NCBI GenBank assembly: GCA_028716665.1
Contig: JAQUPP010000001.1
Span: 555,073 to 619,072 of the forward strand
Direction: 5' to 3'
DNA from: Patescibacteria group bacterium
GTDB lineage: Bacteria; Patescibacteriota; Patescibacteriia; UBA2591; JAQUPP01
Length of the DNA: 64,000 nt
Below, one piece after another: positions 3,001 through 28,931 of the stretch. Positions within the stretch are counted from its first letter, which is position 1, and every line of letters begins with the position of its first letter. The notes under the pieces are model-generated. The model saw only the letters and a program-made list of their open reading frames with translations. It made no database searches and was not told the DNA's origin. The position numbers and the translations under genes are program-made.

Positions 3001-6000
3001 ACCGGCAATCTTTCTTTAACAGGCAACAGTTATGATGTTAAGGCAAAAGTTCAGGGCAGCAAAACTTACGCTTATGTTGGAACAGATCAACTCGGACTTC
3101 AGATTGTAGACGCGACTACGCCGGCCAGTCCTACATTGGCGAACTCGGTTAATATTGGAAGCAATATTTATGGAGTTGAGCTTAACAATAATTATGCTTA
3201 TTTGGCCAGTGATACCGGAGGTTTAAATATCGTTGCTATTGGTGGGACAAATGGTTCGGATTCTGCGCAAGAATCTTCTGATAATGAAACTTTTCCATAT
3301 AAAAAATCAATTGCTTTGACCGGAGCCGGCGACGCCAGTACGAATTATCAAATTATGGTTAAGGTCGGTTATAGCAGCGCCGCAACAGGAGTAAATTTAA
3401 CGTGTTCCGGTAATTGTCAAGCCGATTTTGACGATATCAGATTTTATGATAATGACGGTGTGACAGAACTTGATTATTTTAAAGAAACATACACTTTGGG
3501 TGATAAAGCCACTTTTTGGGTGGAAGTAAAAGATAGTTTGTCCAGCGGACAAAACCCGACCATATATATGTATTATGGCGACAATGATGCCAGCACCACT
3601 TCCAGCGGCGCCAATACTTTCCCGTTATTTTTTGATGATTTTACCGGCACAACAATTGATACCGGAAAATGGAGCGAAACAGATACATCCAGTAAAATCA
3701 GTCAAAGTGATAAAATTGTTGTTACCGGCGGCGCGGGTTGGGGAAATACCAGTTTATACAGTGTGAGTGATTTTGCCAGAGCTGATAATTTGGAATTATT
3801 ATTTGATTATAAACCGACTGGCGGAACTTCTGTAATGTTTGGTTGGAAAGATAGCACTTCCGGCAAGAGCTATACGGATTTAATTTATTCTTTCTATGAT
3901 ACTAGTGATACAAATCGTATTTACGAAGACAATGGTGACAGAGGACAATTTTCCGGTGGTTGGATCGCCAATAACACTTATAAAGTCAGAATGCCGTTGA
4001 AAACCGGTGGCGGAGCAAAATATATGCGCAGTACTGATGGCGGACGAACATGGGTATTAAATTATGATTCTTCGTATTCCACTGAAGCGACTGAAAAAAT
4101 CGGTTTTATTAATTCTGATGCTGCTTATGAGATTGATAATGCTTTTATTCGTAAGGTTTCTTCTGCTGATCCGAAAATAAATAATTATATTTATAATGCC
4201 GGCGGTTCTGATTTAACAGAGCAAGCTTCGGGTAACGGAGATTTTCCATACAAAAAAACCATTGGTTTATTGGGCCAGGGTGATGCGGGAACGAATTATC
4301 AAATTGAAATTAAAGTTGGTTATGCTCCTACAACCAATGGAGTTAATTTAAGTTGTTCCAGCCATTGCCAAACTGATTTTGACGATATCAGATTTTATGA
4401 TAATGATGGTACGACCGAATTGGATTATTGGCGAGAAACTTATACTGCTTCTGATCAGGCCACTTTTTGGGTAGAAGTTAAAGATAGTTTGTCAGACGGT
4501 GAAAATCCGAATATTTATATGTATTATGGAAATGAAACGGCGGATACCGCTTCTAATTCCGCTAATACTTTTACTGAAACAAATCCTGACACATTTGATG
4601 TGGGAAGCTGGCACATGGAAGAAGGTTCTGGATCTACTACTGACGATGCTTCTGCTAATAGTAATACAGCCACTATTAATGGCGCGACATGGACTTCATC
4701 TGGGAAATTCGGGAACGCGCTAGACTTTGATGGAGCTGATAATGTCAGTGTTCCTTCAAGTTCTGAATTAAGCCCAACAGACGCGATTAGCGTGGAATTT
4801 TGGATTTATCCAAAGGGTCGTTATTCGGATTGGGGAAATATTATTTATAAATCAGGCAGTTATGGTCTTAATTGGGAGGGTTGGAATGCAAGAATGAGGT
4901 GGACAATAGGCGCAAGTTGCGGCGGCAGTTGGGGTGGAGGAGGTCTCCCCACTTTAGCCTATAATACCTGGACTCATGTCGTGGCCACTTATGATAAAAA
5001 TTTACCCAGCAATCAGATGAATATGTATTTTAATGGTGTTGTTGGCGAAACTTTAACCTGTACTAATGCTATTCCTGTTAATTCCAATGCTCTTGTAATG
5101 AAGATTGATAACAATATTCCTGTGGATCAATCAGAAAGATTAGATGAAGTAAAAGTTTATAATCGTGCTTTATCTGCCGATGAAGTTTCATCTTTATATA
5201 ATTATAACTTAATTAGAACTCGTAAGTCTTCTTCTGTTGATCCGGAAGTGGCTAATACTATTTCACCGTTTACACCCGAAATAATCAGTTCTTTTGATAC
5301 GCCGGGTAATGCTTGGGATGTGAAAGTGAAAACTATTGGCGCTGTAACTTATGCTTTTGTGGCAGATTATTCCGGCGGCGGATTAAGAATTATCAATGTA
5401 ACCGATCCTGCCAATCCGGTTGAAGTTTCATCAATCGGTTCCGGAAATACTTTTAGATCAGTTGATGTTGTTGGTAATTATGCTTATTTGGCTCTTGAAG
5501 GCAGCGATCTTTATATTTATGATATTTCCAATATAGCTGTTCCTTTTTTTGTCGGTAATTACAGTATAGTAAATTATGAAGCTTACGATATACAAGTTAT
5601 CAGTAATTATGCTTATTTGGCTAACAGACAAGGAGGTTTGTATATAATAGATGTCAGTAATCCGTATCGGCCGGGCATGGTCAGTCAATATAACACTTAT
5701 CCGGATTATACTTGGGGGTTGATTGTTGAAGGGGACTACGCTTATTTGGCTACTTATACTACTGGTTTAAAAATAATTGACTTAGGTGATTTATCACCGC
5801 CGGTTCAAGTTTCAACTACAATGGCAGTTGGAATTAGTAATGCTCAAGATGTGGCGGTTTCCGGTAATTATGCATATGTGGCGGAATACAATTGGGGATT
5901 AATAGTTATTGACGTCTCAAGCACAAGTACACCAAGCATTGTCGGGTCAGCTCAATCTTTTGGTAATCCATATGCTATTACAGTGGACGGCGATTACGCG

Positions 6001-9000
6001 TATGTGGCGAGCCAGAATAGAGGTTTGGAAATATTTGACATTTCCGATCCGACAGCGCCGATTTTAACCAAATCTTATATTTGGACGGGCAGCGGTTCGG
6101 TTTATGATATTGAAGTAATTGGCAATTATGCGTATCTTGCCAATTATACTTATGGTATTAAAATAATTGATATTACTGATAAATATAATCCACTTTTAGT
6201 CGGCAGTGCAGGCGTAAGTGGAAGCGCAGCCGGTATTGATATACAAGGTGATTATGCTTATGTCACAGACTATGGTGCTTATATGCATATTTTTAATATT
6301 TCCAATAAAACTTCGCCGCAATGGATAAGCAGTTATAATATTACCGGAGGTCAAGGCTTGGTGTGGAGAATAGCTGTTTCCGGCGATTATGCTTACGTGG
6401 CTGACAAAGGATATAATTTATATATTTTTAATATTGCCGACCCATATAATATCGCGCTTGTCGGCACTCTTGATTCTGACATATCAGGACAGAGTGACAG
6501 GGGTGCTTTAAATCTTTTTGTCAGCGGTACGCGTGTTTATATTGCGGATTACACTCGCGGTCTGCAAGTAATTGATATCAGCGATCCGACTGCTCCTTAT
6601 ATTTTATCTTGCATTGACAGAGTTAAAGATAATCAATTGTGGGCTGGAGCTTATTTTGGCGGAGTTATATCTGTATCTATCTCCGGACATTATGCTTATT
6701 TGATTGACACTTTAAGGGGTCTTTGGATTGTTGACCTTGATCAATTATCAGAAACACCGGCAGTGAATACTGCCAGTGGCGGTTATGTGACAGATATAGA
6801 AGTGCAAGGAGATTATACTTATGTTTTGGCGAATAGCAGTGCCGGGAGCGGTTCAACGGCATTTTCTGTTTTATCAATTTTTGATACCAGTACCAATCCG
6901 GCCACTTTAAAGAGTCGAATAAAAATTTATGATGCTTTGGGGATAACGGTCAGTGGTAATTATGTTTATGTGGCAAATCTTGGCAAGGGATTATTAATTA
7001 TTGATGTTTCAAATAAATCTGCTCCGCAGGGAGTCGGCGTTTATGATTCAACCGGTTCTACTTATGACGTGGCGGTCTCAGGAAATTATGCATACTTGGC
7101 GGATTATTCCGGCGGATTTAAAGTAATTGATATTTCTACTAAAACCAGCCCGGTTTATAAGACAGTTATTAATACAGGTGTCGCAACCCAGAGAGTTCAA
7201 GTAAAAGGCAATTATGCTTATGTGACTGATGCCACTACCGGTTTTCATATTATTAATATTACCACCCCCACTTCGCCTTCAGAAACAGGTTCAACTTTAC
7301 CGGTCAATGCTCATTATGACTTCTTTGTTGAAGGAAGTTATGTTTATGTCGGCGACAATACATCGGGTCTAACAATATACAACATTTCCAATCCGGCCGC
7401 GCCTTATTTGGTTGGTACTTATGATACCATGGGTAATGTTTATGACGTAAAAGTTTCCGGCGGATACGCTTATATCAGCGATTATGGCGGCGGACTTTTA
7501 ATTTTGGATGTTTCAATTCCTTCATCGCCGGCTTATGTTGGTAACTACATCAGCAAAAGCTCAACTTACAGACTTTTTGTCAAAAGGAATAAAATATATT
7601 TGGCTACGCAATATCACGGCGTGGAAGTTATAAATTTAAAAACACAAAATTCAAACGTTGTTTCAACCGGACTTGATACTTTGGCTGCTCCGATTTTAAA
7701 AGGTTCTTTAACCGCCACTGACACTGAGCCGACCGGCACTTCTATTACTTATTATTTAAGTGTTGATAACGGCACTACTTGGGAGGCAATTACGCCTGAT
7801 GGCAGTGAATATACTTTTACCGCTTTTGGTTCTGATTTAAAATGGAAGGCGGTTATGACCACTGATGATTCAACAATAACTCCAACTATTTCTCAAGTTG
7901 TAATTTGGGCTTCAACCGGAATGAGCAATACCGGTTATCTTATTTCTTCGGTTTTTGAGCAAAAATCTCCAAATTTTGCTTGGGAAACCATAGAATGGAC
8001 TGACAACGAAATACAAACTACAAGAGTAAAAGTTCGTACTGACGAGACTGCCGATATGGCCACAGCCACGACTTGGACAAATTGTCCATACGCGGTAGAC
8101 GAAGGCGATCTTGGCGATTTATCTTCTGTTTCCTCAACTCAACCTTATATCCAATATCGTCTTGAATTCGCCACTTCGGATATTGATGAAACTCCGATTC
8201 TTAGCGATATTGATATAACCTCAGCGGTTTATGCCACCGCGACTTATGATTATAGTCAAACTAATCCGGTTGGTTGGTATCACATTGATTGGGTTAATTC
8301 CGGCGGCACAGACACGGCTGTAAAAGTTAGAACTAAAGAAGCGGATACTCAAGAAGGATTAGACGATGATACTTGGAGTGATTGGGTAACTACCAGCGGC
8401 CAAGATATCAGAGAAATGGCCAGTCCGACAAAATGGATCAGGCTTGAAGTTCAAATAGAAACAAGAAAAAATAATGTTTCACCGATTCTGGAAAGTTTAA
8501 GTCTTTTTTACGCGGTCAATGTTACGCCAACAGTCTCAGAAATTTCGGCTCAGGAAAACGAAAATGGAGTGGTTCAAATTTCTTATACAGTTTTAGACGA
8601 GGACAGTGATAGTATTAGCACAACTTTTCAATATTGGGATGGTGATTCTTGGGAAGATTGCGATACCACTACGGGTGAAGGCAGTCATGATGTCACTCCG
8701 GGTTTGCAGACAGAATTAACCGGCACGTGGAATGTAAAAACAGATTATAATAATCAATATCTTGCCAATTCTCGCATTAAAATTATTATTGATGACAGTT
8801 CGCCTTATTTAAATCTTGGCGAAGATCAATCTACTACTTTTGTAATTGATACGAAAAAACCGACTACTCCGACTTTAAGTATTAACTCAGGCGCAGCGAT
8901 TACCAACTCTTTGTTTGTAACTTTAACTCCGGCTTGTGTTGATGACAGTGATTTAAAAGTTCAGTTTTCCAATGATGATTTAACTTATGGCACGGTCACC

Positions 9001-18491: not shown

Positions 18492-20339
18492 ATGATTGAT
18501 AAATTAAAAAAATTATCCAAATTAATCCGCTATTATATTTTATTTTCCACCACTGAAGCCGGTTCCGGTCATCCAACTTCTTCGCTTTCGGCGACTGATT
18601 TGATGGCTGTTTTATTTTTTGGCGGATTTTTTCGTGTAAATCTTCAAGATCCTAAATTTGTCAATAATGACAGATTTATTCTTTCAAAAGGCCACGCTGT
18701 GCCGGCGCTTTACGCTGTTTATGCTGCGGCCGGAATTTTGACCGAAACTGATCTTAAAAAATTGCGTAAATTCGACAGCCCTTTAGAAGGACATCCAGTG
18801 CCGCGTTTTCCATACAGTGAAGTCGCCACCGGTTCTTTGGGTCAAGGTTTGTCAGTCGGTGTTGGTATGGCTATTAATGCTAAATATTTGGATAAATTGC
18901 CTTATCGCACTTATGTCCTTTTAGGTGACAGCGAAATGGCCGAGGGTTCGGTTTGGGAAGCCATTGAATTGGCCAGTTATTATAAACTTGATAATTTAAT
19001 CGGTATTATTGACGTGAATCGCTTGGGACAAAGAGGTGAGACAATGCTCGGTCATAAAGTTAACGAATATGCCAAGCGAATTTCGGCTTTTGGTTGGCAG
19101 ACAATTGTTATTGACGGACATAATTTAAAAGAAATTGAAAAAACTTTTAAAAAAGCCAATCAAATTAAAAATAAACCGATAATGATAATTGCCAAAACCA
19201 TCAAGGGTAAAGGAGTTTCTTTTTTGGAAAATAAAAACGGTTGGCACGGGAAAGCGCTTTCAAAAGAAGAGTTTAATAAAGCTGTGCAAGAATTAGGAGA
19301 AATTGATAAAAAAATAAAGGGAGAAATTCAAGAACCAGAGAAAGGGCAAAAATCAACCCCGACGCCAATGGGTCGGGGCTCCGACCGAAGCGTCGGAGAA
19401 TTTAAAATTATAGAGTATCCAATAAATACTCCGGTCGCAACACGCAAGGCTTTTGGCAATGCCATAACCCGTTTGGCTGAAAAATATCCGGAAATAGTTG
19501 TTTTGGACGGCGAAGTTGGAAATTCAACTTACGCGGAAATTTTTGAAAAAAAATTTCCAAAAAGATTTTTTCAGATGTTTATTGCCGAACAAAATATGGT
19601 TGGTACGGCGCTGGGATTGGACAAGCGCGGAAAAATTCCTTTTGTCCCGACTTTTGGCGCTTTTTTAATCAGAGCTTTTGATCAAATCAGAATGTCGCAA
19701 TATTCAGAAGCTAATCTTAAATTTATCGGTTCGCACGCCGGCGTTTCCATTGGTGAAGACGGACCGTCGCAGATGGCGCTTGAAGATATTGCCATGTTTA
19801 GAACGATTTTAAACAGCGTAGTTTTATATCCGTCTGACGCGATTAGTACGGAAAAATTGGTTGAAGAAATGATAAAATTCAAAGGAATAGCTTATCTTCG
19901 CACCACGCGTTCGGCCACACCGATAATTTATAAACCAAATGAAAATTTTCCCATTGGCGGAAGCAAGGTTTTGAAGAAAAGCGAAAAAGATGCGGTGACC
20001 GTAGTCGCGGCCGGTATTACTCTTTTTGAAGCGTTAAAAGCTTATGAAATATTAAAAAAAGAGGGGATTAATATCAGAATAATTGACCTTTACAGTATCA
20101 AACCGATTGACGCAGCCACTTTGCAACAAGCGGCTAAAGAAACAAAAGCCATTATTACGGTTGAAGATCATTTTGCCGAAGGCGGAATGGGCGAAGCCGT
20201 GCGCAGTATTGGTATAAATATTAATTCATTAGCGGTGAGAAAAATGCCACGCAGCGGTAGGCCGGAAGAATTATTGGATTTTGAAGAAATTTCCGCCAAG
20301 GCGATTATTAAAAAAATCAGAGAAATTATGAAAGTTTAA
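18492..20339 (+). CDS. tkt: Transketolase (single fused polypeptide, 615 aa)
   Basis: 'TEAGSGHPTSSLSATDLMAV' (TPP-binding GHPG region), 'GDSEMAEGSVWEA', and C-terminal pyrimidine-binding and TKC domains. Confidence 0.85.
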   Translation: MIDKLKKLSKLIRYYILFSTTEAGSGHPTSSLSATDLMAVLFFGGFFRVNLQDPKFVNNDRFILSKGHAVPALYAVYAAAGILTETDLKKLRKFDSPLEGHPVPRFPYSEVATGSLGQGLSVGVGMAINAKYLDKLPYRTYVLLGDSEMAEGSVWEAIELASYYKLDNLIGIIDVNRLGQRGETMLGHKVNEYAKRISAFGWQTIVIDGHNLKEIEKTFKKANQIKNKPIMIIAKTIKGKGVSFLENKNGWHGKALSKEEFNKAVQELGEIDKKIKGEIQEPEKGQKSTPTPMGRGSDRSVGEFKIIEYPINTPVATRKAFGNAITRLAEKYPEIVVLDGEVGNSTYAEIFEKKFPKRFFQMFIAEQNMVGTALGLDKRGKIPFVPTFGAFLIRAFDQIRMSQYSEANLKFIGSHAGVSIGEDGPSQMALEDIAMFRTILNSVVLYPSDAISTEKLVEEMIKFKGIAYLRTTRSATPIIYKPNENFPIGGSKVLKKSEKDAVTVVAAGITLFEALKAYEILKKEGINIRIIDLYSIKPIDAATLQQAAKETKAIITVEDHFAEGGMGEAVRSIGININSLAVRKMPRSGRPEELLDFEEISAKAIIKKIREIMKV

Positions 20340-20363
20340 ATTATTAATAAATAGTCCTAATAT

Positions 20364-20393
20364 AAAAAGAGCTTTTTTAAAAGCTCTTTTTAT
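20364..20393. terminator. Bidirectional rho-independent terminator between convergent tkt and 20416..20901
   Basis: 'aaaagagctttt ttaa aagctctttt' palindrome with A-run and T-run flanks. Confidence 0.7.
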
Positions 20394-20415
20394 ATATTTA
20401 ATTAATTTAATATAT

Positions 20416-20901
20416 TTAACTTACTCGCCATTCAATTTCTTTGTCATCTCCGGCAAATTCGCGCCATTCTCCGTCTTCGGCTACGACAAACCATTTTTGT
20501 TTGGTTTGGCTCCAGACCATGGGATTGTCAAGAAAAAAAGGTTTTTTAACAATTTCTTTCGGCTGCAACTTATCAAGTTCCAGCCATTTTTTAAACACGG
20601 TTTCAATAGCATAATCAAGGCGGCGCGACTTAGCCCATTCGGATACTTTATTAATGGCTGTTTTGGCTTGTTCCACGGAACCGGCTAAATCCAATAATTG
20701 TTTTGCTGGACGGGTAAATCTTGAATAAATTATTTTTTTCTTTTTCGCGTCGTCTTTAATTTGTTCAAGCGTTAGACCCTTGCTGTAAAAATAATGATTA
20801 ACTATTTCTTGAATAGCCGTTCCTTTGTCTTCTTTAGGAGCCGCCGGAGGGGTGACTTTGATTTTTTTATTTTTAGGCAGTTTTAGTTTTTGTTCAGTCA
20901 T
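20416..20901 (-). CDS. Hypothetical protein (161 aa, Lys-rich)
   Basis: Clean ORF with no recognisable motifs. Its start codon abuts the repeat element at 20902. Confidence 0.45.
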   Translation of the reverse strand: MTEQKLKLPKNKKIKVTPPAAPKEDKGTAIQEIVNHYFYSKGLTLEQIKDDAKKKKIIYSRFTRPAKQLLDLAGSVEQAKTAINKVSEWAKSRRLDYAIETVFKKWLELDKLQPKEIVKKPFFLDNPMVWSQTKQKWFVVAEDGEWREFAGDDKEIEWRVS

Positions 20902-21041
20902 ACCAGGTAGTAGAAATTTGACTAATTAATATTAAATATTTTTTTAAACTTAGGCTAAGCGCCGAAATAGTAAGAATTTGATTTATTAATACCTATTTTT
21001 ACAGCCCACCTTAGTGGGCGGTCAAATTTTCACTACCTGGC
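20902..21041. repeat. MITE-like intergenic element copy A, about 140 bp, with 21 bp terminal inverted repeats ACCAGGTAGTAGAAATTTGAC / GTCAAATTTTCACTACCTGGC
   Basis: The inverted repeats are read directly. The same repeats bound a second element at 26213..26356. There is an internal hairpin 'gcccac ctta gtgggc'. Confidence 0.65.
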
Positions 21042-21145
21042 ATAATAAAAGTATTTTATCACTTTTGTAAAATTAGGCAAGGTGAAAAAGTTATCCACAG
21101 ATTAAGACTTGTTAATTTTATTTGGGTATGTTACTATGTGTATAG

Positions 21146-21182
21146 ATAACACTAAGTTAATGTATAAATAACATTAAGTTAA
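21146..21182 (+). promoter_or_regulatory. 15 bp direct repeat (ATAACACTAAGTTAA / ATAACATTAAGTTAA, 7 bp spacer) ending 5 bp upstream of the nrtR-like start. Candidate operator.
   Basis: Read directly from the sequence. Its position immediately 5' of a predicted transcription-factor gene heading an operon supports the call. Confidence 0.4.
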
Positions 21183-21186
21183 AAAT

Positions 21187-21888
21187 ATGAAAAACAAAAA
21201 TAAAATTGCCCGTTGGCAAGAAAAACCGGAGAAACCGCAAATAGCGGTGGATACAGTTATTTTTAATATCATTAATAATGATTTAAAAATTCTGTTAATC
21301 AAACGTGGATCGAAAACATTTAAAAATATGTGGGCCATACCCGGCGGCCGAGTTAATAAAAATGAACCGTTAGAGGAAGCGGCAAAAAGAGAGTTAGAAG
21401 AAGAAACCGGAGTGAAAGATGTTTATTTGGAACAGCTTTATACCTTCGGCGACCCTAAAAGAGATCCGAGAGGCAGGGTCATTTCTGTGGCTTATTTCGC
21501 TTTAATCGGCGAAGAACCGCGATTGAGGGCTGACACGGACGCTATAGACACAGACTGGTTTAGTGTTAAGAAATTGCCCCCATTGGCCTTTGACCATAAA
21601 AAAATTGTTAATTATGCTTTAAAACGTTTATCTTGGAAATTGGAATACACCAATATAGGCCGCAATCTTTTACCGAAAGTTTTTACTCTTTCGGAGTTAA
21701 GAGAAGTCTATGAAATTATTTTAGGCAAGAAAATTGATAAAAGAAATTTTCAGAAAAAAATATTATCCTTAAATCTCATTAAACCGGTGCATCAGTTAAA
21801 GAAAAATGTTTCTTACCGGCCGCCCAAGCTTTGGAAATTCATAACCGGTCAAAATGTGATCTTAGAAAAACGGGGATTGAATTTTTAA
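21187..21888 (+). CDS. nrtR: Nudix-domain transcriptional regulator of NAD metabolism (NrtR-like): N-terminal Nudix fold plus C-terminal winged-helix
   Basis: Nudix box 'GGRVNKNEPLEEAAKRELEEETGV'. About 100-aa C-terminal extension. The gene heads a pnuC-nadR operon. Confidence 0.55.
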   Translation: MKNKNKIARWQEKPEKPQIAVDTVIFNIINNDLKILLIKRGSKTFKNMWAIPGGRVNKNEPLEEAAKRELEEETGVKDVYLEQLYTFGDPKRDPRGRVISVAYFALIGEEPRLRADTDAIDTDWFSVKKLPPLAFDHKKIVNYALKRLSWKLEYTNIGRNLLPKVFTLSELREVYEIILGKKIDKRNFQKKILSLNLIKPVHQLKKNVSYRPPKLWKFITGQNVILEKRGLNF

Positions 21889-21910
21889 ATAAATTATTTA
21901 ATATTATAAT

Positions 21911-22585
21911 ATGCATAATTTTTTAAACATTAACAATATATTCTTCACATTTATCGGTTATCAGATGAGTTATTTGGAATTTTTCGGCACTATTTTTAAT
22001 TTATGGTGCGTTTATTTGGCGGCTAAAAATAAAATTTTAACTTGGCCTATCGGTATCGCGGGAATCATACTTTATCTTTTCCTTTTTTATCAAATTCAAC
22101 TGTATTCTGATTTTTTTGAACAAATCTACTTTTTAATTACAAGTTTTTACGGATGGTTTTTATGGCGAAAAATCATGTTAAAAAATAAGTCAGGCGAATC
22201 CAAACAACTGCAAATCAGCTATAATGTTCTTAAAAATAATATCATTGTTATAAGTTTAATAATTTTAGGAACAGCGTTAACTGGTTATTTCATGCAACAC
22301 ATACATCTTTATTTTCCCAAGATTTTCCCCGTGCAAGCATCATTTCCATTTTTAGATGCACTTACAACCGTAATGAGTTTTATTGCTCAATTTTTAATGG
22401 CAAAAAGAAAAATAGAATGTTGGTATCTTTGGATATTGGTGGATATCATCGGCATTGGCCTTTATTATATCAAAGGCGTTAAATTTATTTCTTTGGAATA
22501 TTTAATATTTCTTTGCCTGGCAATAAAAGGATTGGTTGATTGGCAAAAACAATATCATAATCAAATAATCAAGGGAAAAATATGA
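21911..22585 (+). CDS. pnuC: Nicotinamide riboside transporter PnuC-like membrane protein
   Basis: 224 aa with seven or eight TM segments and Trp-rich helices. Located between the nrtR-like gene and nadR. Confidence 0.5.
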   Translation: MHNFLNINNIFFTFIGYQMSYLEFFGTIFNLWCVYLAAKNKILTWPIGIAGIILYLFLFYQIQLYSDFFEQIYFLITSFYGWFLWRKIMLKNKSGESKQLQISYNVLKNNIIVISLIILGTALTGYFMQHIHLYFPKIFPVQASFPFLDALTTVMSFIAQFLMAKRKIECWYLWILVDIIGIGLYYIKGVKFISLEYLIFLCLAIKGLVDWQKQYHNQIIKGKI

Positions 22586-23613
22586 AAAATAATATCGCCG
22601 GTAAAAAAATAGGGAGCGGCCTGGTTTTCGGGAAATTCATGCCTCTGCACGAAGGTCATGTTTATTTATTGAATTTTGCCCTTAAATCATGCAATAAATT
22701 AACCATACTTGTCTGTTCGTTAAAAGACGAACCTATTCCGGGAGAGATAAGATTTTTATGGGTAAAACAATTATTTCCCAACGCAAACGTTATTCATCAT
22801 TATGCCGATATTCCGCAAGAGCCAAAAGAGGATCCTGATTTTTGGAATATTTGGAAAGAAAGTATCAAGAAACATTGCCCGGGAGAGGAATTCGACGCCT
22901 TGTTCGGTTCAGAAGATTATGGCTGGAAAATGGCCGAGACAATGGGAATTGAATATATTCCGGTAAATCGTCAAAGAGATTTGGTGCCGATTTCGGGCAC
23001 AACCATAAGAAAAAATCCGATAAAATATTGGAGATTTCTGCCTGAAATAACAAGACCTTATTTTGTAAAAAAAGTATGCATTGTTGGTCCGGAATCTACG
23101 GGAAAAACAACGCTTGTTAAAAAATTGGCAAAAAAATATAAAACTGTTTTTGTGGATGAATATGCCCGTCAATTATTGGATGAATATGTCAAGCATGCCG
23201 GTTATAAAGAAGGGGAGGTTCGTTATAAAGATATTTTCAATATTGCTCGCGGACAAATAGCAACGGAAGATTCTCAAGTTAAAAGAGCGAATAAAATACT
23301 TTTTTGCGACACGGATTTGAATACAACTGTTTTTTGGTCAAATTTTTATTTTAAAAAATGTCCTCAATGGATCAAGAAAGAAGCTGAAAATAGAATTTAT
23401 GACCTTTATTTATTGCTCGATATTGATGTTCCATGGGTAAAGGATCCTCAAAGGCCGATACCAAAAATAAACGAACGCAAGAAATACTTGAAATGGTGGC
23501 AAGAAGAATTAAAAAAACAAAAAAGACCGTACATTATAATTAAAGGAAACTGGGAAGAGAGACTTAAATTGGCCAATCAATCCATAAATAAATTATTTGT
23601 TAATTCTAAATAA
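22582..23613 (+). CDS. nadR: Bifunctional NMN adenylyltransferase / ribosylnicotinamide kinase (NadR-type, without HTH domain)
   Basis: 'GKFMPLHEGHVYLL' ((H/T)xGH nucleotidyltransferase motif) and 'GPESTGKTTLVKKL' (P-loop of the RNK domain). Confidence 0.8.
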   Translation: MKNNIAGKKIGSGLVFGKFMPLHEGHVYLLNFALKSCNKLTILVCSLKDEPIPGEIRFLWVKQLFPNANVIHHYADIPQEPKEDPDFWNIWKESIKKHCPGEEFDALFGSEDYGWKMAETMGIEYIPVNRQRDLVPISGTTIRKNPIKYWRFLPEITRPYFVKKVCIVGPESTGKTTLVKKLAKKYKTVFVDEYARQLLDEYVKHAGYKEGEVRYKDIFNIARGQIATEDSQVKRANKILFCDTDLNTTVFWSNFYFKKCPQWIKKEAENRIYDLYLLLDIDVPWVKDPQRPIPKINERKKYLKWWQEELKKQKRPYIIIKGNWEERLKLANQSINKLFVNSK

Positions 23614-23627
23614 TTTAAAAAATAAAT

Positions 23628-24491
23628 ATGCGAATTCAAACTTACAGCGTTTTAATAGGAAATCGTAAATGCAATGCTCGTTGTCCTTATTGTGTTTCCA
23701 AAATGACGCCGGCGCAAGGAGTTGATTCTAAAAAATCAAAAATAAATTGGAGAAATTTCAATATTGGCTGTCAATTTGCTCAAAATAACGAGGTTTCCAC
23801 CATTTTGCTTACCGGCAAAGGAGAACCGCTTTTATTTCCAAAAGAAATTACAGCTTTTTTGAAACACCTTAAACCTTACAAATTTCCTTTTATAGAGCTT
23901 CAAACTAACGGCATCCTCATTTTCCAAAAAAGAAATTTATACAAAAAATATCTGAAAGAATGGTATCAGCTTGGTTTAACAACTATTGCTATTTCCATAG
24001 TTCATTATAAAGATGAAAAAAATAAAATAATTTATCAGCCAGAAGGTTCTTATATGAAATTGGTTGATTTAATAAAAATTATTCATTCAGCAGGACTTTC
24101 AGTAAGATTTTCCTGTACGATGTTAAAAAATTTTATAGACAGCCCAACAGAAGTTAAAAAATTAGTTAATTTCGCCAAAGAAAACAAAGTGGAACAAATA
24201 TCCACAAGGTCGCTGGAAAAACCGATTAAAAGTGAAAATAAGGAAATTTCTCAATGGGTTGCCAAACATCAGATAAATGAAACCCAACTTAGAAATTATC
24301 TTAAGAATAATGCCGTTGAAGTGATGAAGCTGGTTCACGGGGCTACTGTTTATGATTTAGACGGTCAAAATATTTGTTTAACCAATGCTCTAACTTTAGA
24401 TCCATCTTCAGAGGAACTTAGACAATTAATATTTTTTCCGGACGGTCATTTAAGATATGACTGGCAATATCCGGGGGCTAACTTAATTTAA
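23628..24491 (+). CDS. Radical SAM enzyme of unknown specificity
   Basis: 'CNARCPYC' is a CX3CX2C cluster motif near the N-terminus. 287 aa with no SPASM extension. Confidence 0.65.
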   Translation: MRIQTYSVLIGNRKCNARCPYCVSKMTPAQGVDSKKSKINWRNFNIGCQFAQNNEVSTILLTGKGEPLLFPKEITAFLKHLKPYKFPFIELQTNGILIFQKRNLYKKYLKEWYQLGLTTIAISIVHYKDEKNKIIYQPEGSYMKLVDLIKIIHSAGLSVRFSCTMLKNFIDSPTEVKKLVNFAKENKVEQISTRSLEKPIKSENKEISQWVAKHQINETQLRNYLKNNAVEVMKLVHGATVYDLDGQNICLTNALTLDPSSEELRQLIFFPDGHLRYDWQYPGANLI

Positions 24492-24496
24492 TAAAT

Positions 24497-25450
24497 ATGA
24501 AAAAATTTAACGCCATTACCACTGTTTACAGTTATTATTTTCCCGAAATCAGAAAAATAATAACTGATTTAACCAAAAATTATCCTCATCAGATATTTCT
24601 TAAATCCATAGATCCCGGTTTGGACGATTTTCATTTTCCGATTATTGATCAATTTTTAAAATTTCAATCCGAGGCAATACCGCGTCTTAAAGATTTTGCT
24701 TTTAAATATCCGATCGGCGGCGCGGAAGAAGGAATACGCGAGATTTTAACCATGCTACAGAGTAAGGGGATTAAACAAATATATGTTTTAAAAGGGGACT
24801 ATGAAGGTTATCAGGCCGTAGCCGAGACGCGCAACATTAAAACGATTGAGGTTGATAAAAATACAGATCCGACAAAAATTAGAAAGGGTTATTGGTTTAT
24901 TTCCAATCCTTCGGCCTGCGACGGCAATATTTTATCCGATGAATTTATAAATAATATCTGTCAGGCCGGTCATAAAATTATTTATGATTTAACTTATCTC
25001 GGCATGACCGATTTGCACCATTTTGATATCAGTCATCCGAACATTATCGCTGTTCTTGTGTCTTTTAGTAAACCGTACGGATTATTTTACTATCGTTTGG
25101 GATTTGCTTTCAGTCGAATATCCATTCCGTCATTATATGGAAACAAGTGGTTTAAAAATATTTTATCGCTGTTGATTATACGGAGAATAATGGTAAAATT
25201 CAATTGTCGATATTTTTCTAAAAAATATAAACCCGTTCAGAAAAAAATCGTTAATGAAATTAATAAGCAGTTTGAATTGAATTTAAAACCAAGTGATGCC
25301 TTGCTTTTGGCTTATTTAAATAAAAAAGATGCAAAAAAACTTAATTCGCAGCAATTAAAATTAATTAAAAAATTTAAACGAGGCGATAATTATAGATTTT
25401 GCCTCACTCCTTATTACCAAGAGTATGAAAAAAATATGCGTTTTCATTAA
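24497..25450 (+). CDS. Hypothetical protein with weak PLP fold-type-I (aminotransferase-like) motif resemblance
   Basis: 'FISNPSACDGNIL' resembles NP.NPTG, and 'VSFSKPYGLFYYRLGFAFS' resembles SFSK..G..G.R.G with a PLP lysine. It is short (317 aa). Weak call. Confidence 0.3.
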   Translation: MKKFNAITTVYSYYFPEIRKIITDLTKNYPHQIFLKSIDPGLDDFHFPIIDQFLKFQSEAIPRLKDFAFKYPIGGAEEGIREILTMLQSKGIKQIYVLKGDYEGYQAVAETRNIKTIEVDKNTDPTKIRKGYWFISNPSACDGNILSDEFINNICQAGHKIIYDLTYLGMTDLHHFDISHPNIIAVLVSFSKPYGLFYYRLGFAFSRISIPSLYGNKWFKNILSLLIIRRIMVKFNCRYFSKKYKPVQKKIVNEINKQFELNLKPSDALLLAYLNKKDAKKLNSQQLKLIKKFKRGDNYRFCLTPYYQEYEKNMRFH

Positions 25451-26213
25451 AACAACCAAGCCCGGCGTGCGTCAAACGGCAAAAGAAATAGAAAAATATT
25501 TCAAAGAACGGAATTATCAGGTTTTTAATAAAATAAATTCATCAGTTTTAAAAAAGGGATTAGACTGGATTATGGTTCTTGGCGGAGACGGATCAATACT
25601 TCATACGGCTAATAAAGTGGCGATTCAGAAAGTTCCCTTAGTAGGCGTTAATTTTGGCTGCAAGGGTTATCTCTGCCGCATTTCAAAAGAACAATTATTA
25701 AAAAAAATGGAAGAGCTTCATCAAGGAAATTTTTCCGTTGATTCTTATACGCGAATTAAAGCGCGGATCACCAGAAAAAATAAAATTATCAAAGAAATAG
25801 ACGCGCTTAACGATATAGTGGTCGGTGGAATCAATCGGGTGGTTTGGTTAAAACTTAAAATTATTCATGGTAATCAAAGGAAATTAGCCAATGTCGTTGG
25901 CGATGGTATAATTTTTTCCACTCAAATAGGTTCAACTGCTTATAATCTTTATGCCGGCGGGCCGGTGCTTTTCAATGATTCTTTCAGCGTGGTTGCCTGC
26001 AACGCGTTCTTTGAATCTGATTATTTTTCGCCCAATACAAGAGCATTTGTCGCGCCAACCAGCGCTTCATTTGAAGTGATAACCTTGCGGAGCGGTCAGC
26101 ATTTGCCTTATGTTGTGGCCGACGGACAGAGAGACTATCGTCTTAATGAAGGCGATAAAGTGGTTATTTCAAAATCATTAATGACCACAAAATTAATAAA
26201 ATTCAAGGATTGA
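25425..26213 (+). CDS. nadK: NAD+ kinase
   Basis: 'WIMVLGGDGSILH' (GGDG) and 'DGIIFSTQIGSTAYNLYAGGPVL' (NAD kinase signature). Confidence 0.85.
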   Translation: MKKICVFIKTTKPGVRQTAKEIEKYFKERNYQVFNKINSSVLKKGLDWIMVLGGDGSILHTANKVAIQKVPLVGVNFGCKGYLCRISKEQLLKKMEELHQGNFSVDSYTRIKARITRKNKIIKEIDALNDIVVGGINRVVWLKLKIIHGNQRKLANVVGDGIIFSTQIGSTAYNLYAGGPVLFNDSFSVVACNAFFESDYFSPNTRAFVAPTSASFEVITLRSGQHLPYVVADGQRDYRLNEGDKVVISKSLMTTKLIKFKD

Positions 26214-26356
26214 CCAGGTAGTAGAATTTTGACTTATTTTTTTTAAGGGCGGTAAGAGGTAATTAATAAATTTTTAAGCTAATAAATTGATAAGTATATA
26301 TAAATAAAGAAATTAAATAAAAAATTAAAGGCCCTGTCAAAATTTCACTACCTGGT
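26213..26356. repeat. MITE-like intergenic element copy B: ACCAGGTAGTAGAATTTTGAC ... GTCAAAATTTCACTACCTGGT
   Basis: Same terminal inverted repeats as 20902..21041. It starts at the last base of the nadK stop codon. The AT-rich interior differs from copy A. Confidence 0.65.
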
Positions 26357-26413
26357 TGACAAATAGCAATTTTTTTGATATTATAATAATAATTTTGCAG
26401 CTCTTTACAATAT

Positions 26414-26427
26414 CCGCTAAATAGCGG
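26414..26427 (+). promoter_or_regulatory. Perfect palindrome CCGCTAAATAGCGG immediately 5' of the pncB ribosome-binding site (AAAGGAGG). Candidate operator.
   Basis: Read directly from the sequence. It lies 4 bp before a strong SD and 15 bp before the ATG. Confidence 0.35.
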
Positions 26428-26441
26428 AAAAGGAGGAAAAG

Positions 26442-27656
26442 ATGGAACATATTATTAATTCATTGTTGGACCTGGATTATTACAAATTGACCATGGCCCA
26501 AGTATCTTGGAAATATTATCCTGAAGTTCCGGTACAGTATAGTTTTATAAATCGCACCGCTCGTGTGAATTTATCCGATTATATTTCCCTTGAAGTTTTA
26601 AAGTCGGAGTTTGACCATGTTAAAACGCTCAAATATCTTCCTGAAGAAATTGATTATCTGCGCGGTTTGAAAATTTTCGAAGAAGGTTTTTTAAATTTCT
26701 TAAACGGCGTAAGGTTGGACGGTATTTCTTTTCGCACTCAACCGAAATTTGAAATTGAAGTGGAAGGTAATTGGAGTGAACGAATTTTTTGGGAAACCAT
26801 AAAATTATGCATCGTTACAGAGTTGTATAATCGGGTTTTAGTAAAACGATCCGGCATGTCCATGGAAGAAGTTTGGAGAGAAGGAGAAAGGCGATTGGAT
26901 GAGAAAATTAGAATTATTCAAAAACATCCGGAAATTAAATTTATAGATTTCGGCACTCGGCGCAGATTCAGCAGAGATTGGCATGATTATGCTGCAAGGA
27001 AATTAAAAAATGAATTATCGCCGGAACAGTTTTTGGGAGTATCAAATGTTTACCTTGCCAAAAAATACGGTTTAGCCTCAAAAGGCACTTATGCTCATGA
27101 AAAAGACATGATTCTTTACGGAGTTTTCTATGACAGTAAAGATCCTGTCCGCGAGTCGCATAACAGGGTTATGGAAATATGGTGGGAAACATACGGTAAG
27201 GGATTATCAATTGCTTTGTCTGATACTTATGGCAGCGATTTCTTTCTTGAAAATTTTACATTAGAACAGGCTCAAAATTGGAATGGATTACGTCAAGATT
27301 CAGGTGATCCTTTTAGATGGGGCGAGAAAGTATTTGATTTTTATCTTAAAAAAACCATTAACCCCACCACTAAAACAGTTATTTTCAGTGACGGATTGGA
27401 CATTACAATGATGTTGAAATTATCAGGATATTTTCGGAATTGCTTCAATGTTTTGTTCGGTTGGGGTACGAATCTGACAAATGATTGCGGTTTTGAGGCG
27501 CTTTCCTTGGTTTCAAAGCCAACGTATTCTTGCGGTCACCCGGTAATTAAATTGAGTGATAATATCGCCAAAGCTACCGGAGATCTCAAAGAAATCGAAA
27601 GAGTTAAACGTATTCTCAGTTATACCAACGACTTTAACGAAACCTGTGTGTATTAA
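26442..27656 (+). CDS. pncB: Nicotinate phosphoribosyltransferase
   Basis: The N-terminal 'LLDLDYYKLTMAQV' is characteristic of NAPRTase. 404 aa. Confidence 0.75.
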   Translation: MEHIINSLLDLDYYKLTMAQVSWKYYPEVPVQYSFINRTARVNLSDYISLEVLKSEFDHVKTLKYLPEEIDYLRGLKIFEEGFLNFLNGVRLDGISFRTQPKFEIEVEGNWSERIFWETIKLCIVTELYNRVLVKRSGMSMEEVWREGERRLDEKIRIIQKHPEIKFIDFGTRRRFSRDWHDYAARKLKNELSPEQFLGVSNVYLAKKYGLASKGTYAHEKDMILYGVFYDSKDPVRESHNRVMEIWWETYGKGLSIALSDTYGSDFFLENFTLEQAQNWNGLRQDSGDPFRWGEKVFDFYLKKTINPTTKTVIFSDGLDITMMLKLSGYFRNCFNVLFGWGTNLTNDCGFEALSLVSKPTYSCGHPVIKLSDNIAKATGDLKEIERVKRILSYTNDFNETCVY

Positions 27657-27707
27657 TAATTTTTTCCGTCTTTAAAAAATAAAAAATCCAAAAAAAGAAA
27701 AAGGGAG

Positions 27708-28319
27708 GTGATTAAAATGAAAGGAAAGATTATCAGGATAAATTTGATAGTGGATGGGATTATTGGTTTTCTTGAAGAAGGTCCGCTTTTCAGTCCGAGA
27801 ACCAGAATAATTATTCCGCACATTGATGAGTATTTAAAAAAGGAATGGACCGAAGAGAGAAGACATAATCAAGAAACCATTTTTGTCGGAGATGCGCATG
27901 GTAAGAATGATCTGGAAAACAAAATATTCGGTGTTCATTGTCAAAAGGGAAGCAAGGAAGCTCAAATTATTCAAGAATTGCGTTGGTGCGCGGAAAATAG
28001 TTATAGCTCGGTTTATACTAAAAAAAGTCACAGCGCGCTTTTTGAAACAGGTTTATTGGATCATCTACAGGCGTATCATCCGTTTAACGCTCCGGTTCCG
28101 GAGAATATGGAAATAGTAATTATGGGAGCTTGGACTGACGTTTGTGTTTTGCACACAATAATTGACCTTGTGAGATACGGTTATAATAAAATTATTGTAT
28201 CAAAGGATTGTGTGGAAACCGGCGATTTACCTTGGCATCCGGGCGATGAAGTGCAAAAATGGGCGCTGGTTTATATAGAAAAAGTATTGGGCGCGAAAGT
28301 AGTAGACCATTTGGATTAA
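27708..28319 (+). CDS. pncA: Isochorismatase-family hydrolase, likely nicotinamidase
   Basis: 'MGAWTDVCVLHT' is the catalytic Cys context of the isochorismatase/nicotinamidase family. The gene lies downstream of pncB. Confidence 0.55.
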   Translation: MIKMKGKIIRINLIVDGIIGFLEEGPLFSPRTRIIIPHIDEYLKKEWTEERRHNQETIFVGDAHGKNDLENKIFGVHCQKGSKEAQIIQELRWCAENSYSSVYTKKSHSALFETGLLDHLQAYHPFNAPVPENMEIVIMGAWTDVCVLHTIIDLVRYGYNKIIVSKDCVETGDLPWHPGDEVQKWALVYIEKVLGAKVVDHLD

Positions 28320-28321
28320 AT

Positions 28322-28354
28322 AAAAAAGCCCTCTCAATAATCGAGAGGGCTTTT
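28322..28354. terminator. Bidirectional terminator between convergent pncA and lemA
   Basis: 'aaaaagccctctc aataatc gagagggcttttt'. Confidence 0.75.
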
Positions 28355-28373
28355 TAAATTATCCGAATATAAT

Positions 28374-28931
28374 TTAGAATTCAACTTTCGGCGCAGTGCG
28401 AGCCGCTTCTTCTTTAAGTTCAAAAAATTCCACTGTTTTAAAACCGAGTTTTCCGGCAATTAAATTGGACGGAAACACTTCGCATTTGACATTGAAATCT
28501 CTGGCATTGCTATTGTAAAATCTACGGGAAGCTTGAATTTTATTTTCCGTATCAGTCAGTTCATCTTGCAGTTTTTGAAAATTTTCCGAAGCTCTTAACT
28601 GAGGATAATTTTCAGCCACGGCGAATAAAGTTTTTAAAGCGCCGGTCAAACCATCTTCCGCTTCCGCTTTTTGCGACATTGTTTGCGCTCCCATGGCTTG
28701 AGTTCTGGCTTGAGTGACATTTTCAAATGTTTCTTTTTCATGAGCCGCGTATCCTTTGACGGCATTAACCAAATTCGGAATAAGGTCGTATCTTCGTTTA
28801 AGTTGAACGTCGATATCAGACCAGGATTCATTTACGCGATTGTGCCAAGTAATTAAGCCGTTATAAGTGGAAATAATCCACCAAACAAACCAAATTACTA
28901 TGACGACGATAATCCAAAGATAAGTAGGCAT
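28374..28931 (-). CDS. lemA: LemA family membrane protein
   Basis: N-terminal TM segment, then 'YNGLITWHNRVNESWSDIDVQLKRRYDLIPNLV...FAVAENYPQLRA...RRFYNSNARDFN', which is canonical LemA. Confidence 0.85.
   Translation of the reverse strand: MPTYLWIIVVIVIWFVWWIISTYNGLITWHNRVNESWSDIDVQLKRRYDLIPNLVNAVKGYAAHEKETFENVTQARTQAMGAQTMSQKAEAEDGLTGALKTLFAVAENYPQLRASENFQKLQDELTDTENKIQASRRFYNSNARDFNVKCEVFPSNLIAGKLGFKTVEFFELKEEAARTAPKVEF

Follow-up and report, generated by a model that had tools for sequence, protein, structure and literature searches.

Tandem predicted NrtR boxes and two probable transcription units in an NAD salvage cluster of a Patescibacteria bacterium

Regulons of nicotinamide adenine dinucleotide (NAD) metabolism controlled by NrtR were described by Rodionov et al. 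(2008, PMC2330246). In these systems a Nudix plus winged-helix regulator is clustered with pnuC, nadR, pncA and pncB, the known regulons include pnuC-nadR, pncA-pncB and nadD-nadE, and most of the motifs are 21-bp palindromes with a GT-N7-AC core, found at the promoter of an operon that starts with nrtR (PMC2330246). At the prs-nadV promoter of Shewanella oneidensis (NrtR entries 3gz5, 3gz6 and 3gz8), two tandem sites were both bound in electrophoretic mobility shift assays, and ADP-ribose suppressed the binding (PMC2330246). A second relevant system is salvage of the Haemophilus influenzae type (1lw7, 8x7f), in which PnuC and a bifunctional NadR without a helix-turn-helix (HTH) domain form, together with NadK, a route from the riboside to NADP. 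Here we analyze a locus that resembles all of these systems, located at positions 21187-28319 of a 64,000-nt stretch (hereafter, the window) from the Patescibacteria group bacterium assembly GCA_028716665.1. The region is an NAD salvage cluster of known type, well preserved in a bacterium with a tiny genome. It is probably organized as two transcription units: one in which tandem NrtR palindromes lie over the promoter, and a second, pncB-pncA, with its own promoter and a predicted RNA leader stem. The main result is confirmatory. With it, the NrtR paradigm of a Nudix-derived repressor, 21-bp palindromes and an ADP-ribose signal is extended to Patescibacteria.

Several features set the locus apart from the described systems. 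Relative to the published NrtR regulons (PMC2330246), the host belongs to the Patescibacteria (candidate phyla radiation), nadK and a gene pair for a radical S-adenosylmethionine (SAM) protein and a pyridoxal phosphate (PLP) enzyme lie inside the operon, the Nudix box is intact, and the pncB-pncA unit has no recognizable NrtR box. The Shewanella regulator is a homologous protein with two adjacent sites at one promoter, but it targets NadV salvage where PnuC and NadR are the targets here, and its Nudix box is degenerate; moreover, the second site at our locus goes back to a 22-bp duplication common only to the closest relatives. In comparison with H. influenzae-type salvage, pnuC-nadR occupies the slot that holds nadD in relatives and falls under predicted NrtR control, and PncA and PncB are kept whereas NadD and NadE were undetected in the 64-kb window.

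Gene identities were called by Pfam and NCBIfam profile searches and by sequence matches to the PDB. The NAD-related genes are as follows.

21187-21888, plus strand: nrtR (NUDIX at 1.3e-23, NrtR_WHD at 1.5e-22)
21911-22585, plus strand: pnuC, nicotinamide riboside transporter (PF04973 at 2.6e-52; TIGR01528)
22582-23613, plus strand: nadR, nicotinamide mononucleotide (NMN) adenylyltransferase plus ribosylnicotinamide kinase (NMNAT and AAA_28 kinase domains)
25425-26213, plus strand: nadK, NAD kinase (PF01513 and PF20143, above cutoff)
26442-27656, plus strand: pncB, nicotinate phosphoribosyltransferase (NF003704, TIGR01514)
27717-28319, plus strand: pncA-like isochorismatase-family amidase (ATG 27717 is called in other assemblies; the open reading frame opens with GTG at 27708)

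All six genes were found on the plus strand where the original prediction had placed them, and their Pfam and NCBIfam assignments bear out its reading of the region as an NAD salvage cluster. Beyond 21187-28319, no further NAD genes were found in the window.

The first gene encodes a genuine NrtR-family protein. Its Nudix domain (PF00293, residues 23-141) is followed by a C-terminal winged helix (PF21906, residues 159-218) that scored 79.9 bits against a cutoff of 27. The original prediction had called for a hidden Markov model (HMM) check of this domain, with a plain Nudix hydrolase as the alternative outcome; the domain is present. The best PDB matches (phmmer), full-length in both cases, were two members of the NrtR family, AraR (5bs6, 1e-42) and Shewanella NrtR (3gz5, 1.3e-31). 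The Nudix box is intact (G54-x5-E60-x7-R68-E69-L-x-E72-E73-x-G75-V), and the signature GX5EX7REUXEEXGU was invariant among 30 homologues.

Candidate binding sites for this regulator were examined with two samples. The first consisted of 80 loci from many phyla that encode NrtR orthologues (48-61% identity), in which GT-N7-AC palindromes were sought within 300 nt upstream; 60 of these sites, mostly from other phyla, were used to derive a position weight matrix (PWM) for the NrtR box. The second, independent sample comprised 76 metagenome loci, for which a site was defined by a PWM score of at least 11 and the upstream region as the 250 nt preceding nrtR. NrtR matches listed from genome and metagenome contigs were mostly distant orthologues (at most 62% identity), and close relatives were retrieved individually: L175 is a 95%-identical variant contig of the same metagenome-assembled genome (MAG), L176 is 76-78% identical, and L087 and L089 are relatives whose NrtR is ~70% identical. 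The following features were located directly upstream of nrtR.

21109-21137, plus strand: predicted nrtR promoter, -35 TTGTTA (21109-21114), 17-nt spacer, -10 TACTAT (21132-21137)
21135-21155, no strand assigned: NrtR box A, TATGTGT-ATAGATA-ACACTAA, imperfect palindrome, PWM score 17.9
21139-21182, plus strand: contiguous 22-bp tandem duplication of two units (21139-21160 and 21161-21182) with 2 mismatches, TGTATAGATAACACTAAGTTAA / TGTATAAATAACATTAAGTTAA
21157-21177, no strand assigned: NrtR box B, TTAATGT-ATAAATA-ACATTAA, PWM score 12.1, in the 5' untranslated region (5'UTR), 22 bp from box A

The original prediction had singled out a 15-bp direct repeat at this place as a candidate operator. 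The two copies are exact (21146-21160 and 21168-21182) and stop 4 nt, not 5, before the ATG, but they lie within the 22-bp tandem and were therefore under-delimited. The proposed location is upheld, while the proposed unit is not: what is present is not a direct-repeat site but two tandem 21-bp palindromes, each carrying the GT-N7-AC core. Box B is a perfect 7-N7-7 palindrome (0 mismatches) that spans the junction of the two 22-bp units. Box A has the best PWM score in the 64-kb window, and box B ranks third.

Both the motif and its position are conserved. The consensus upstream of nrtR orthologues was TTAGTGT-N7-ACACTAA, with one copy at most of the 80 loci and two copies 22-25 bp apart at many. 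In the 76 metagenome loci, sites occurred at 2.14 per kb upstream of nrtR versus 0.082 per kb elsewhere, a 26-fold enrichment, and tandem pairs with 22-26 bp spacing were present in 8 of them. By comparison, 100 first-order Markov sequences of 64 kb and of window composition held on average 0.34 sites scoring at least 12, and none of them contained a tandem pair. By position, the nrtR promoter aligns with the sequences TTGACG-17-TATACT (L087) and TTGACA-17-TATAAT (L089), and a GTGTATA..ACACTAA box comes directly after both. Box A, which overlaps the last bases of the -10 element and the predicted start site near 21144, is orthologous to the single box found at the equivalent promoter position in L085, L087 and L089, and box B falls within the ~43-nt leader. 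The tandem arrangement was seen in the window, in L175 (where a box scores 19.3) and in L176, in which box B is degenerate. Because L085, L087 and L089 have only box A, the 22-bp duplication is a feature of this sub-lineage that has been retained. It generated box B, converging on a tandem architecture common in other phyla, and the direct repeat is then seen because a palindromic operator was duplicated. Taken together, these observations support the sequence just upstream of nrtR as a predicted NrtR operator region.

Three side observations concern these boxes and the subfamily of their regulator. An NrtR-like 21-mer, TTTGTGTTTTGCACACAATAA, lies inside pncA at 28141-28161; its PWM score of 13.2 is within the range of shuffled maxima, and it is probably a chance occurrence. 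In L085, a GC-rich, repeat-containing insert of ~330 nt (9676-10000) separates the NrtR box from the nrtR start, giving a very long leader with no counterpart in the other relatives. Among the matches listed, the NrtR subfamily (48-62% identity) was represented in Chloroflexota, Acidobacteriota, Planctomycetota, Proteobacteria, Patescibacteria and DPANN archaea, and across it (loci L005-L174) an intact Nudix box is found without variation, while the operator consensus is nearly uniform. Many bacterial phyla and DPANN archaea share a single, highly conserved NrtR subfamily together with its operator, which suggests either wide horizontal spread or strong constraint.

The genes that follow nrtR would supply NAD from an external riboside. 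PnuC scored 177.7 bits with PF04973 (cutoff 27.3) and 103 bits with TIGR01528 (cutoff 42.45), so that the profile check proposed for this protein ended with the equivalog cutoff passed; nicotinamide riboside is the predicted substrate. NadR aligns over both domains (residues 13-320) with 8x7f (2.6e-45) and 1lw7 (4.2e-39) and has no enterobacterial HTH. It carries GKFMPLHEGH (HxGH-type), ISGTTIR (ISxTxxR-type) and GPESTGKTT (Walker A), and scored below the equivalog cutoff of TIGR01526 (278 bits versus 341). NadK has N- and C-terminal NAD-kinase domains and a GGDGS motif, with every NCBIfam equivalog below cutoff. From nrtR to nadK the genes overlap (pnuC and nadR by 4 nt, the PLP gene and nadK by 26 nt) or are separated by at most 22 nt, and a terminator scan found no convincing terminator inside nrtR-nadK. 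We infer that nrtR-pnuC-nadR-rSAM-PLP-nadK (rSAM, radical SAM; 21187-26213) forms the first transcription unit, read from the sigma-70-like promoter at 21109-21137. By analogy with characterized NrtR proteins, a dimer on each box would repress this operon, including nrtR itself, and ADP-ribose, a product of NAD consumption, would relieve DNA binding and release the repressor. Nicotinamide riboside imported by PnuC could then be converted to NMN and NAD by NadR and to NADP by NadK. As judged from the encoded proteins, the predicted pathway through PnuC, NadR and NadK is complete: it starts with external nicotinamide riboside and ends in NAD and NADP.

The second proposed unit, pncB-pncA (26442-28319), has a strong promoter of its own and no NrtR box. 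The features that delimit it are listed below.

26356-26384, plus strand: pncB promoter, TTGACA, 17-nt spacer, TATTAT after TG (TG-n-TATTAT), 11 of 12 consensus positions
26401-26435, plus strand: predicted pncB 5'UTR structure, with an inner stem at 26414-26427 and an outer stem pairing CUCUUU (26401-26406) with AAGGAG (26430-26435) of the ribosome binding site
28323-28355, no strand assigned: intrinsic terminator acting in both directions, located between pncA and lemA (convergent), with a 15-bp stem and then a run of T

The promoter is the best promoter-like site in the region and is homologous to TCTTGACAAAAT... upstream of pncB in L085, L089 and L090. PncB exceeded the cutoffs of both of its profiles (NF003704, 391.1 bits versus 379; TIGR01514, 309.3 bits versus 269.55). 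The product of the last gene is recognized by PF00857 (9.3e-17). In alignment with the Streptococcus pneumoniae nicotinamidase 3o90 it retains the D-x-H...H metal ligands and the D/K/C triad (DAH, the PPH/GVH histidine and TD(I/V)CVLHT), and its homologues adjoin pncB or nrtR in many loci. Its score with the equivalog NF008623 is 23 bits, below the cutoff of 174, and its best PDB matches are the uncharacterized isochorismatase-family proteins 3hb7 and 3eef, no proven nicotinamidase being among them. From the motifs and from synteny with pncB and nrtR, we consider it a probable nicotinamidase.

The original prediction had also proposed the palindrome CCGCTAAATAGCGG, at 26414-26427, as a second NrtR-type operator. 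It lies in the pncB 5'UTR, downstream of the promoter and 4 nt before GGAGG. It had been called perfect, but it is a 6+2+6 inverted repeat whose 6-bp arms flank a non-symmetric AA centre, and the reverse strand matches with 2 mismatches. The PWM scan revealed no NrtR box upstream of pncB. The pncB promoter has no such box, and predicted NrtR control is limited to the first unit. In L089 and L090, a weak NrtR-like palindrome (TTTTTGT-N7-ACAATAT, score 8.1) lies over the -10 element of the pncB promoter. The combined fold of the leader has a minimum free energy (MFE) of -13 kcal/mol (z = -2.8), better than 198 of 200 shuffles. Searches of Rfam, with the 64 kb at the gathering score and with 20300-28500 at E <= 5, found no RNA family; the NAD+ riboswitches of the nadA and pnuC motifs, among others, had no match in the leaders of pncB and nrtR. 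The predicted stem together with the upstream CUCUUU could occlude the ribosome binding site, which would make it a feature of the RNA and not an operator. In terms of this modelled fold, CCGCTAAATAGCGG is most likely an RNA stem affecting pncB translation or stability. A leader motif conserved among pncB genes (CTCTTTACAA here, GTTCTTTACAAC in L085 and L089) was considered and rejected: the PncB proteins are 34% identical, the folds differ, and the L085 leader has no significant structure.

Several observations weigh against the two-unit arrangement or parts of it. The predicted nrtR promoter is weak, matching 8 of 12 consensus positions, and fell under the threshold of the promoter scan. Box B scores only 12.1 with a matrix built mostly from other phyla, and at the fourth position it has A/T versus their G/C. 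The regulator scored 165.5 bits with the NCBIfam equivalog NF050029, below its cutoff of 400, and among solved structures it is closest to AraR, which responds to arabinose; for these two reasons the effector is assumed from gene context. The shortfall with NF050029, a narrow model, weakens orthology to the seed of that model and leaves family membership untouched. There is no visible Shine-Dalgarno (SD) sequence before nrtR at 21183-21189 (..AAGTTAAAAATATG), and the same holds for its orthologues in L087 and L089, whereas pncB has a strong AAGGAGG. Given its intact Nudix box, NrtR may additionally hydrolyze ADP-ribose. The leader structure of pncB rests on one sequence: the leader of L175 is identical and hence uninformative, and those of L176, L087 and L089 differ. 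Finally, pncB may be reached by read-through from the first unit across the repeat element that separates the two.

Could the regulator act mainly as an enzyme, or could the repeated sequence serve a different protein? A Nudix-winged-HTH protein that works chiefly as an ADP-ribose pyrophosphatase in NAD recycling, with the boxes of minor regulatory weight, would be in keeping with the complete signature that is invariant in the subfamily, and an intact signature in NrtR-like proteins has been linked to high ADP-ribose pyrophosphatase activity in NuhA (PMC2330246). We nevertheless judge this unlikely: the winged helix is well conserved, cognate palindromes are found at the promoter of the regulator's own gene in dozens of lineages, and regulation and catalysis can coexist. 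It is less probable still, and in our view hardly credible, that a regulator binding head to tail, for example one of the response-regulator type, uses the two ATAACAYTAAGTTAA copies as direct-repeat sites. The repeat is indeed exact and long, and each unit has a small TAAC-N5-GTTA symmetry. Yet the homologous promoters of relatives have a single unit and have kept the palindromic GTGTATA-N-ACACTAA box, the palindromic consensus upstream of nrtR is conserved across phyla and agrees with the published NrtR motif, and the cluster encodes no other regulator. We therefore retain tandem NrtR palindromes as the preferred reading of the nrtR upstream region.

The pncB palindrome can likewise be read in other ways. 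It might be a DNA operator, for NrtR binding non-canonically or for another regulator, that blocks elongation or initiation at pncB. In favor of this, the inverted repeat is GC-rich although the intergenic region around it is AT-rich, it occurs once in the window, and it lies ~25 nt downstream of the predicted pncB start site near 26391. On the other hand, it bears no likeness to the NrtR motif. The region ahead of pncB lacks it in L176, whose pncB is 56% identical and which is the nearest relative that is not identical, and also in L087, L089 and L085, whose leaders are unrelated. In addition, the sequence aligned to the weak NrtR-like site of L089 and L090 (26372-26392, TTTTTGA-N7-ATAATAA) lacks both cores. 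The palindrome by itself is not exceptional, because the window holds 25 GC-rich inverted repeats of comparable size, compared with 5.6 in shuffles. An operator role is accordingly very unlikely. A more serious possibility, though still a rather doubtful one, is that the palindrome has no specific function and is a chance inverted repeat or a generic stabilizing 5' stem-loop. Such repeats are common, the stem is short (5-6 bp), and it is conserved only in the near-identical strain. This has to be set against the fold formed with the anti-SD segment, which outperforms nearly all shuffles, and against L176, where a different small inverted repeat, TTGTA-CCT-TACAA, occupies the same pre-SD position, though outside the MFE fold. 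An RNA stem acting on pncB expression thus remains our preferred interpretation of CCGCTAAATAGCGG.

The island had been described as complete, which overstates the case. The branch through PncA and PncB yields nicotinate mononucleotide and needs NadD and NadE, and tblastn with the L089 proteins as queries returned nothing for either in the 64-kb window even at E = 5. Because both were undetected there, the island is not demonstrably complete; only the riboside route is. The proposal of riboside and nicotinamide salvage under NrtR control accordingly holds for the riboside route and, by inference, for control of the first unit, but not for the nicotinate branch, which is incomplete in the window and has no box at pncB. 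In L085-L090 the cluster reads nrtR-nadD-(rSAM-PLP)-nadK-nadE-pncB(-pncA), whereas the lineage of the window has pnuC-nadR in place of nadD and, where nadE would stand, nothing but a repeat element. Two explanations are conceivable: nadD and nadE are encoded at another place in the genome, or the lineage has moved from Preiss-Handler to riboside salvage with PncA and PncB as relics. The comparison with relatives suggests a switch in NAD supply from nadD/nadE to pnuC-nadR and a dependence on external nicotinamide riboside. In all of these relatives the cluster lies beside the same divergent gene. Its 161-aa product (20416-20901, minus strand) adjoins nrtR in all close relatives, is 73-75% identical among them, which exceeds the identity of NrtR, and had no Pfam, NCBIfam or PADLOC match. 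The gene shares the intergenic region that holds the NrtR boxes.

Between nadR and nadK lie two genes that the original prediction had regarded as unrelated to NAD metabolism.

23628-24491, plus strand: radical SAM protein of an uncharacterized family, 287 aa, CX3CX2C at C15/C19/C22, no second cluster motif
24497-25450, plus strand: fold-type-I PLP enzyme, 317 aa, HisC/CobD-like, SFSKPYG lysine motif

The PLP protein is nearest to HisC and CobD at no more than 16% identity, and both families are well conserved (50-67% identity) in Patescibacteria, DPANN archaea and other phyla. Searches gave ~1700 hits for the radical SAM family and ~670 for the PLP family. Homologues of the radical SAM protein (at least 50% identity) were found in or beside NAD clusters in 7 of the 8 contexts examined, the exception being a Riflebacteria locus (L177) with no NAD gene nearby. 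Within Patescibacteria, such clusters are those of the window lineage, L089 (11276-13114, rSAM-PLP) and L090; coordinates here and below are those of the radical SAM gene and any PLP partner. Other arrangements were nadK / rSAM-PLP / nadE (L091, 7049-8948), nadD-rSAM...nrtR (L095, 3900-4763), rSAM-nrtR in a Woesearchaeota locus (L010, 6078-6944) and rSAM-pncB-nadE in a Planctomycetota MAG (L178, 4244-5119). In a second Woesearchaeota locus (L093, 7135-8945) the order is pncB-x-pncA-rSAM-PLP-nadE-nadD, and two strong NrtR boxes (25.2 and 20.2) precede pncB. The PLP gene stands beside the radical SAM gene in four of the NAD contexts, and it occurs without NAD genes in L092 and L094. Two candidates, a 316-aa gene of L176 for the PLP family and a gene of L092 for the radical SAM family, gave no match at E < 1e-5 and were removed from the counts. 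The sample of contexts is small and non-random, and the reasoning is one of guilt by association; even so, the radical SAM gene, often with the PLP gene, recurs in NAD clusters from Patescibacteria and Woesearchaeota to a Planctomycetota genome, and this speaks against the view that the pair interrupts the NAD cluster at random.

The most interesting residue of the analysis is the radical SAM gene, whether alone or accompanied by the PLP gene. Compared with the viperin/MoaA/GDGT-MAS branch (5vsl, 1tv7, 7tom), the radical SAM protein is 15-20% identical and below every NCBIfam cutoff, and its neighbors are NAD genes and not molybdopterin or defence genes. Assignment as MoaA was rejected (TIGR02666, 63.8 bits versus a cutoff of 284), the likeness being at the level of the fold only, as was assignment as a viperin (pVip) or defence gene (NF038283, 31 bits versus 180; PADLOC pVip, weak at 32 bits). 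Literature searches brought up no publication that connects a radical SAM enzyme with NrtR or with NAD clusters. As a tentative suggestion, and one we would not rate as probable, the family may be part of the NrtR/NAD regulon in bacteria and archaea and may catalyze a pyridine-nucleotide step, such as modification, repair or an alternative anaerobic supply of nicotinate or an NAD-related compound. Should a pyridine nucleotide prove to be the substrate of the enzyme, it would supply a step so far missing from a pathway that is regarded as completely worked out.

The repeat element noted in the original prediction is real, and two copies are present.

20902-21041, no strand assigned: copy 1 of an element resembling a miniature inverted-repeat transposable element (MITE), terminal inverted repeats CCAGGTAGTAGAAATTTGAC / GTCAAATTTTCACTACCTGG, flanked by a 4-bp CATA duplication
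26214-26355, no strand assigned: copy 2 of the MITE-like element, flanked by a 4-bp TTGA duplication

The copies are ~140 bp long and share terminal inverted repeats of 20-25 bp and little internal sequence. The element has the hallmarks of a MITE, namely terminal inverted repeats, a target-site duplication, several copies, an empty site in L175 and no coding capacity; no parent transposon was found. The insertion point of copy 1 is the start codon of the divergent 161-aa gene, and the copy separates this codon from the likely promoter of that gene. L175 lacks copy 1 and has an intact, empty target site (660-680); movement of the element is therefore recent. Copy 2 precisely fills the space from the stop codon of nadK to the -35 element of pncB, the left TTGA containing the stop and the right TTGA beginning the -35, and as RNA it is predicted to form a long hairpin (z = -4.2).

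The window as a whole is AT-rich (33-40% GC), and the genes around the cluster are housekeeping or cell-envelope genes, encoding transketolase, Fmt, LemA, a LigB/Memo-like protein, GltX and a giant repeat protein. Two MAG assemblies of the Patescibacteria group (GCA_028690995.1 and GCA_028713475.1) and two sequencing runs contain an identical NrtR protein with the same neighbors, and an identical radical SAM protein is encoded on a 640-kb contig. A GC-rich element of ~57 nt with two hairpins (CCCCGACGCC..GGGTCGGGG and CTCCGAC..GTCGGAG) lies in frame within the transketolase gene (19348-19404), where it encodes ..STPTPMGRGSDRSVGEF.. in a linker of the protein, and an inverted intergenic copy is found at 61038-61094; it looks like a mobile sequence of the repetitive extragenic palindromic (REP) kind tolerated in a coding region. 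Three giant open reading frames (184-11928, 53355-61295 and 61368-63956; 3914, 2646 and 862 aa) contain dozens of ~126-nt repeats and share inverted paralogous segments of up to 1.1 kb with 76-88% identity, which lie at either end of the window and on opposing strands.

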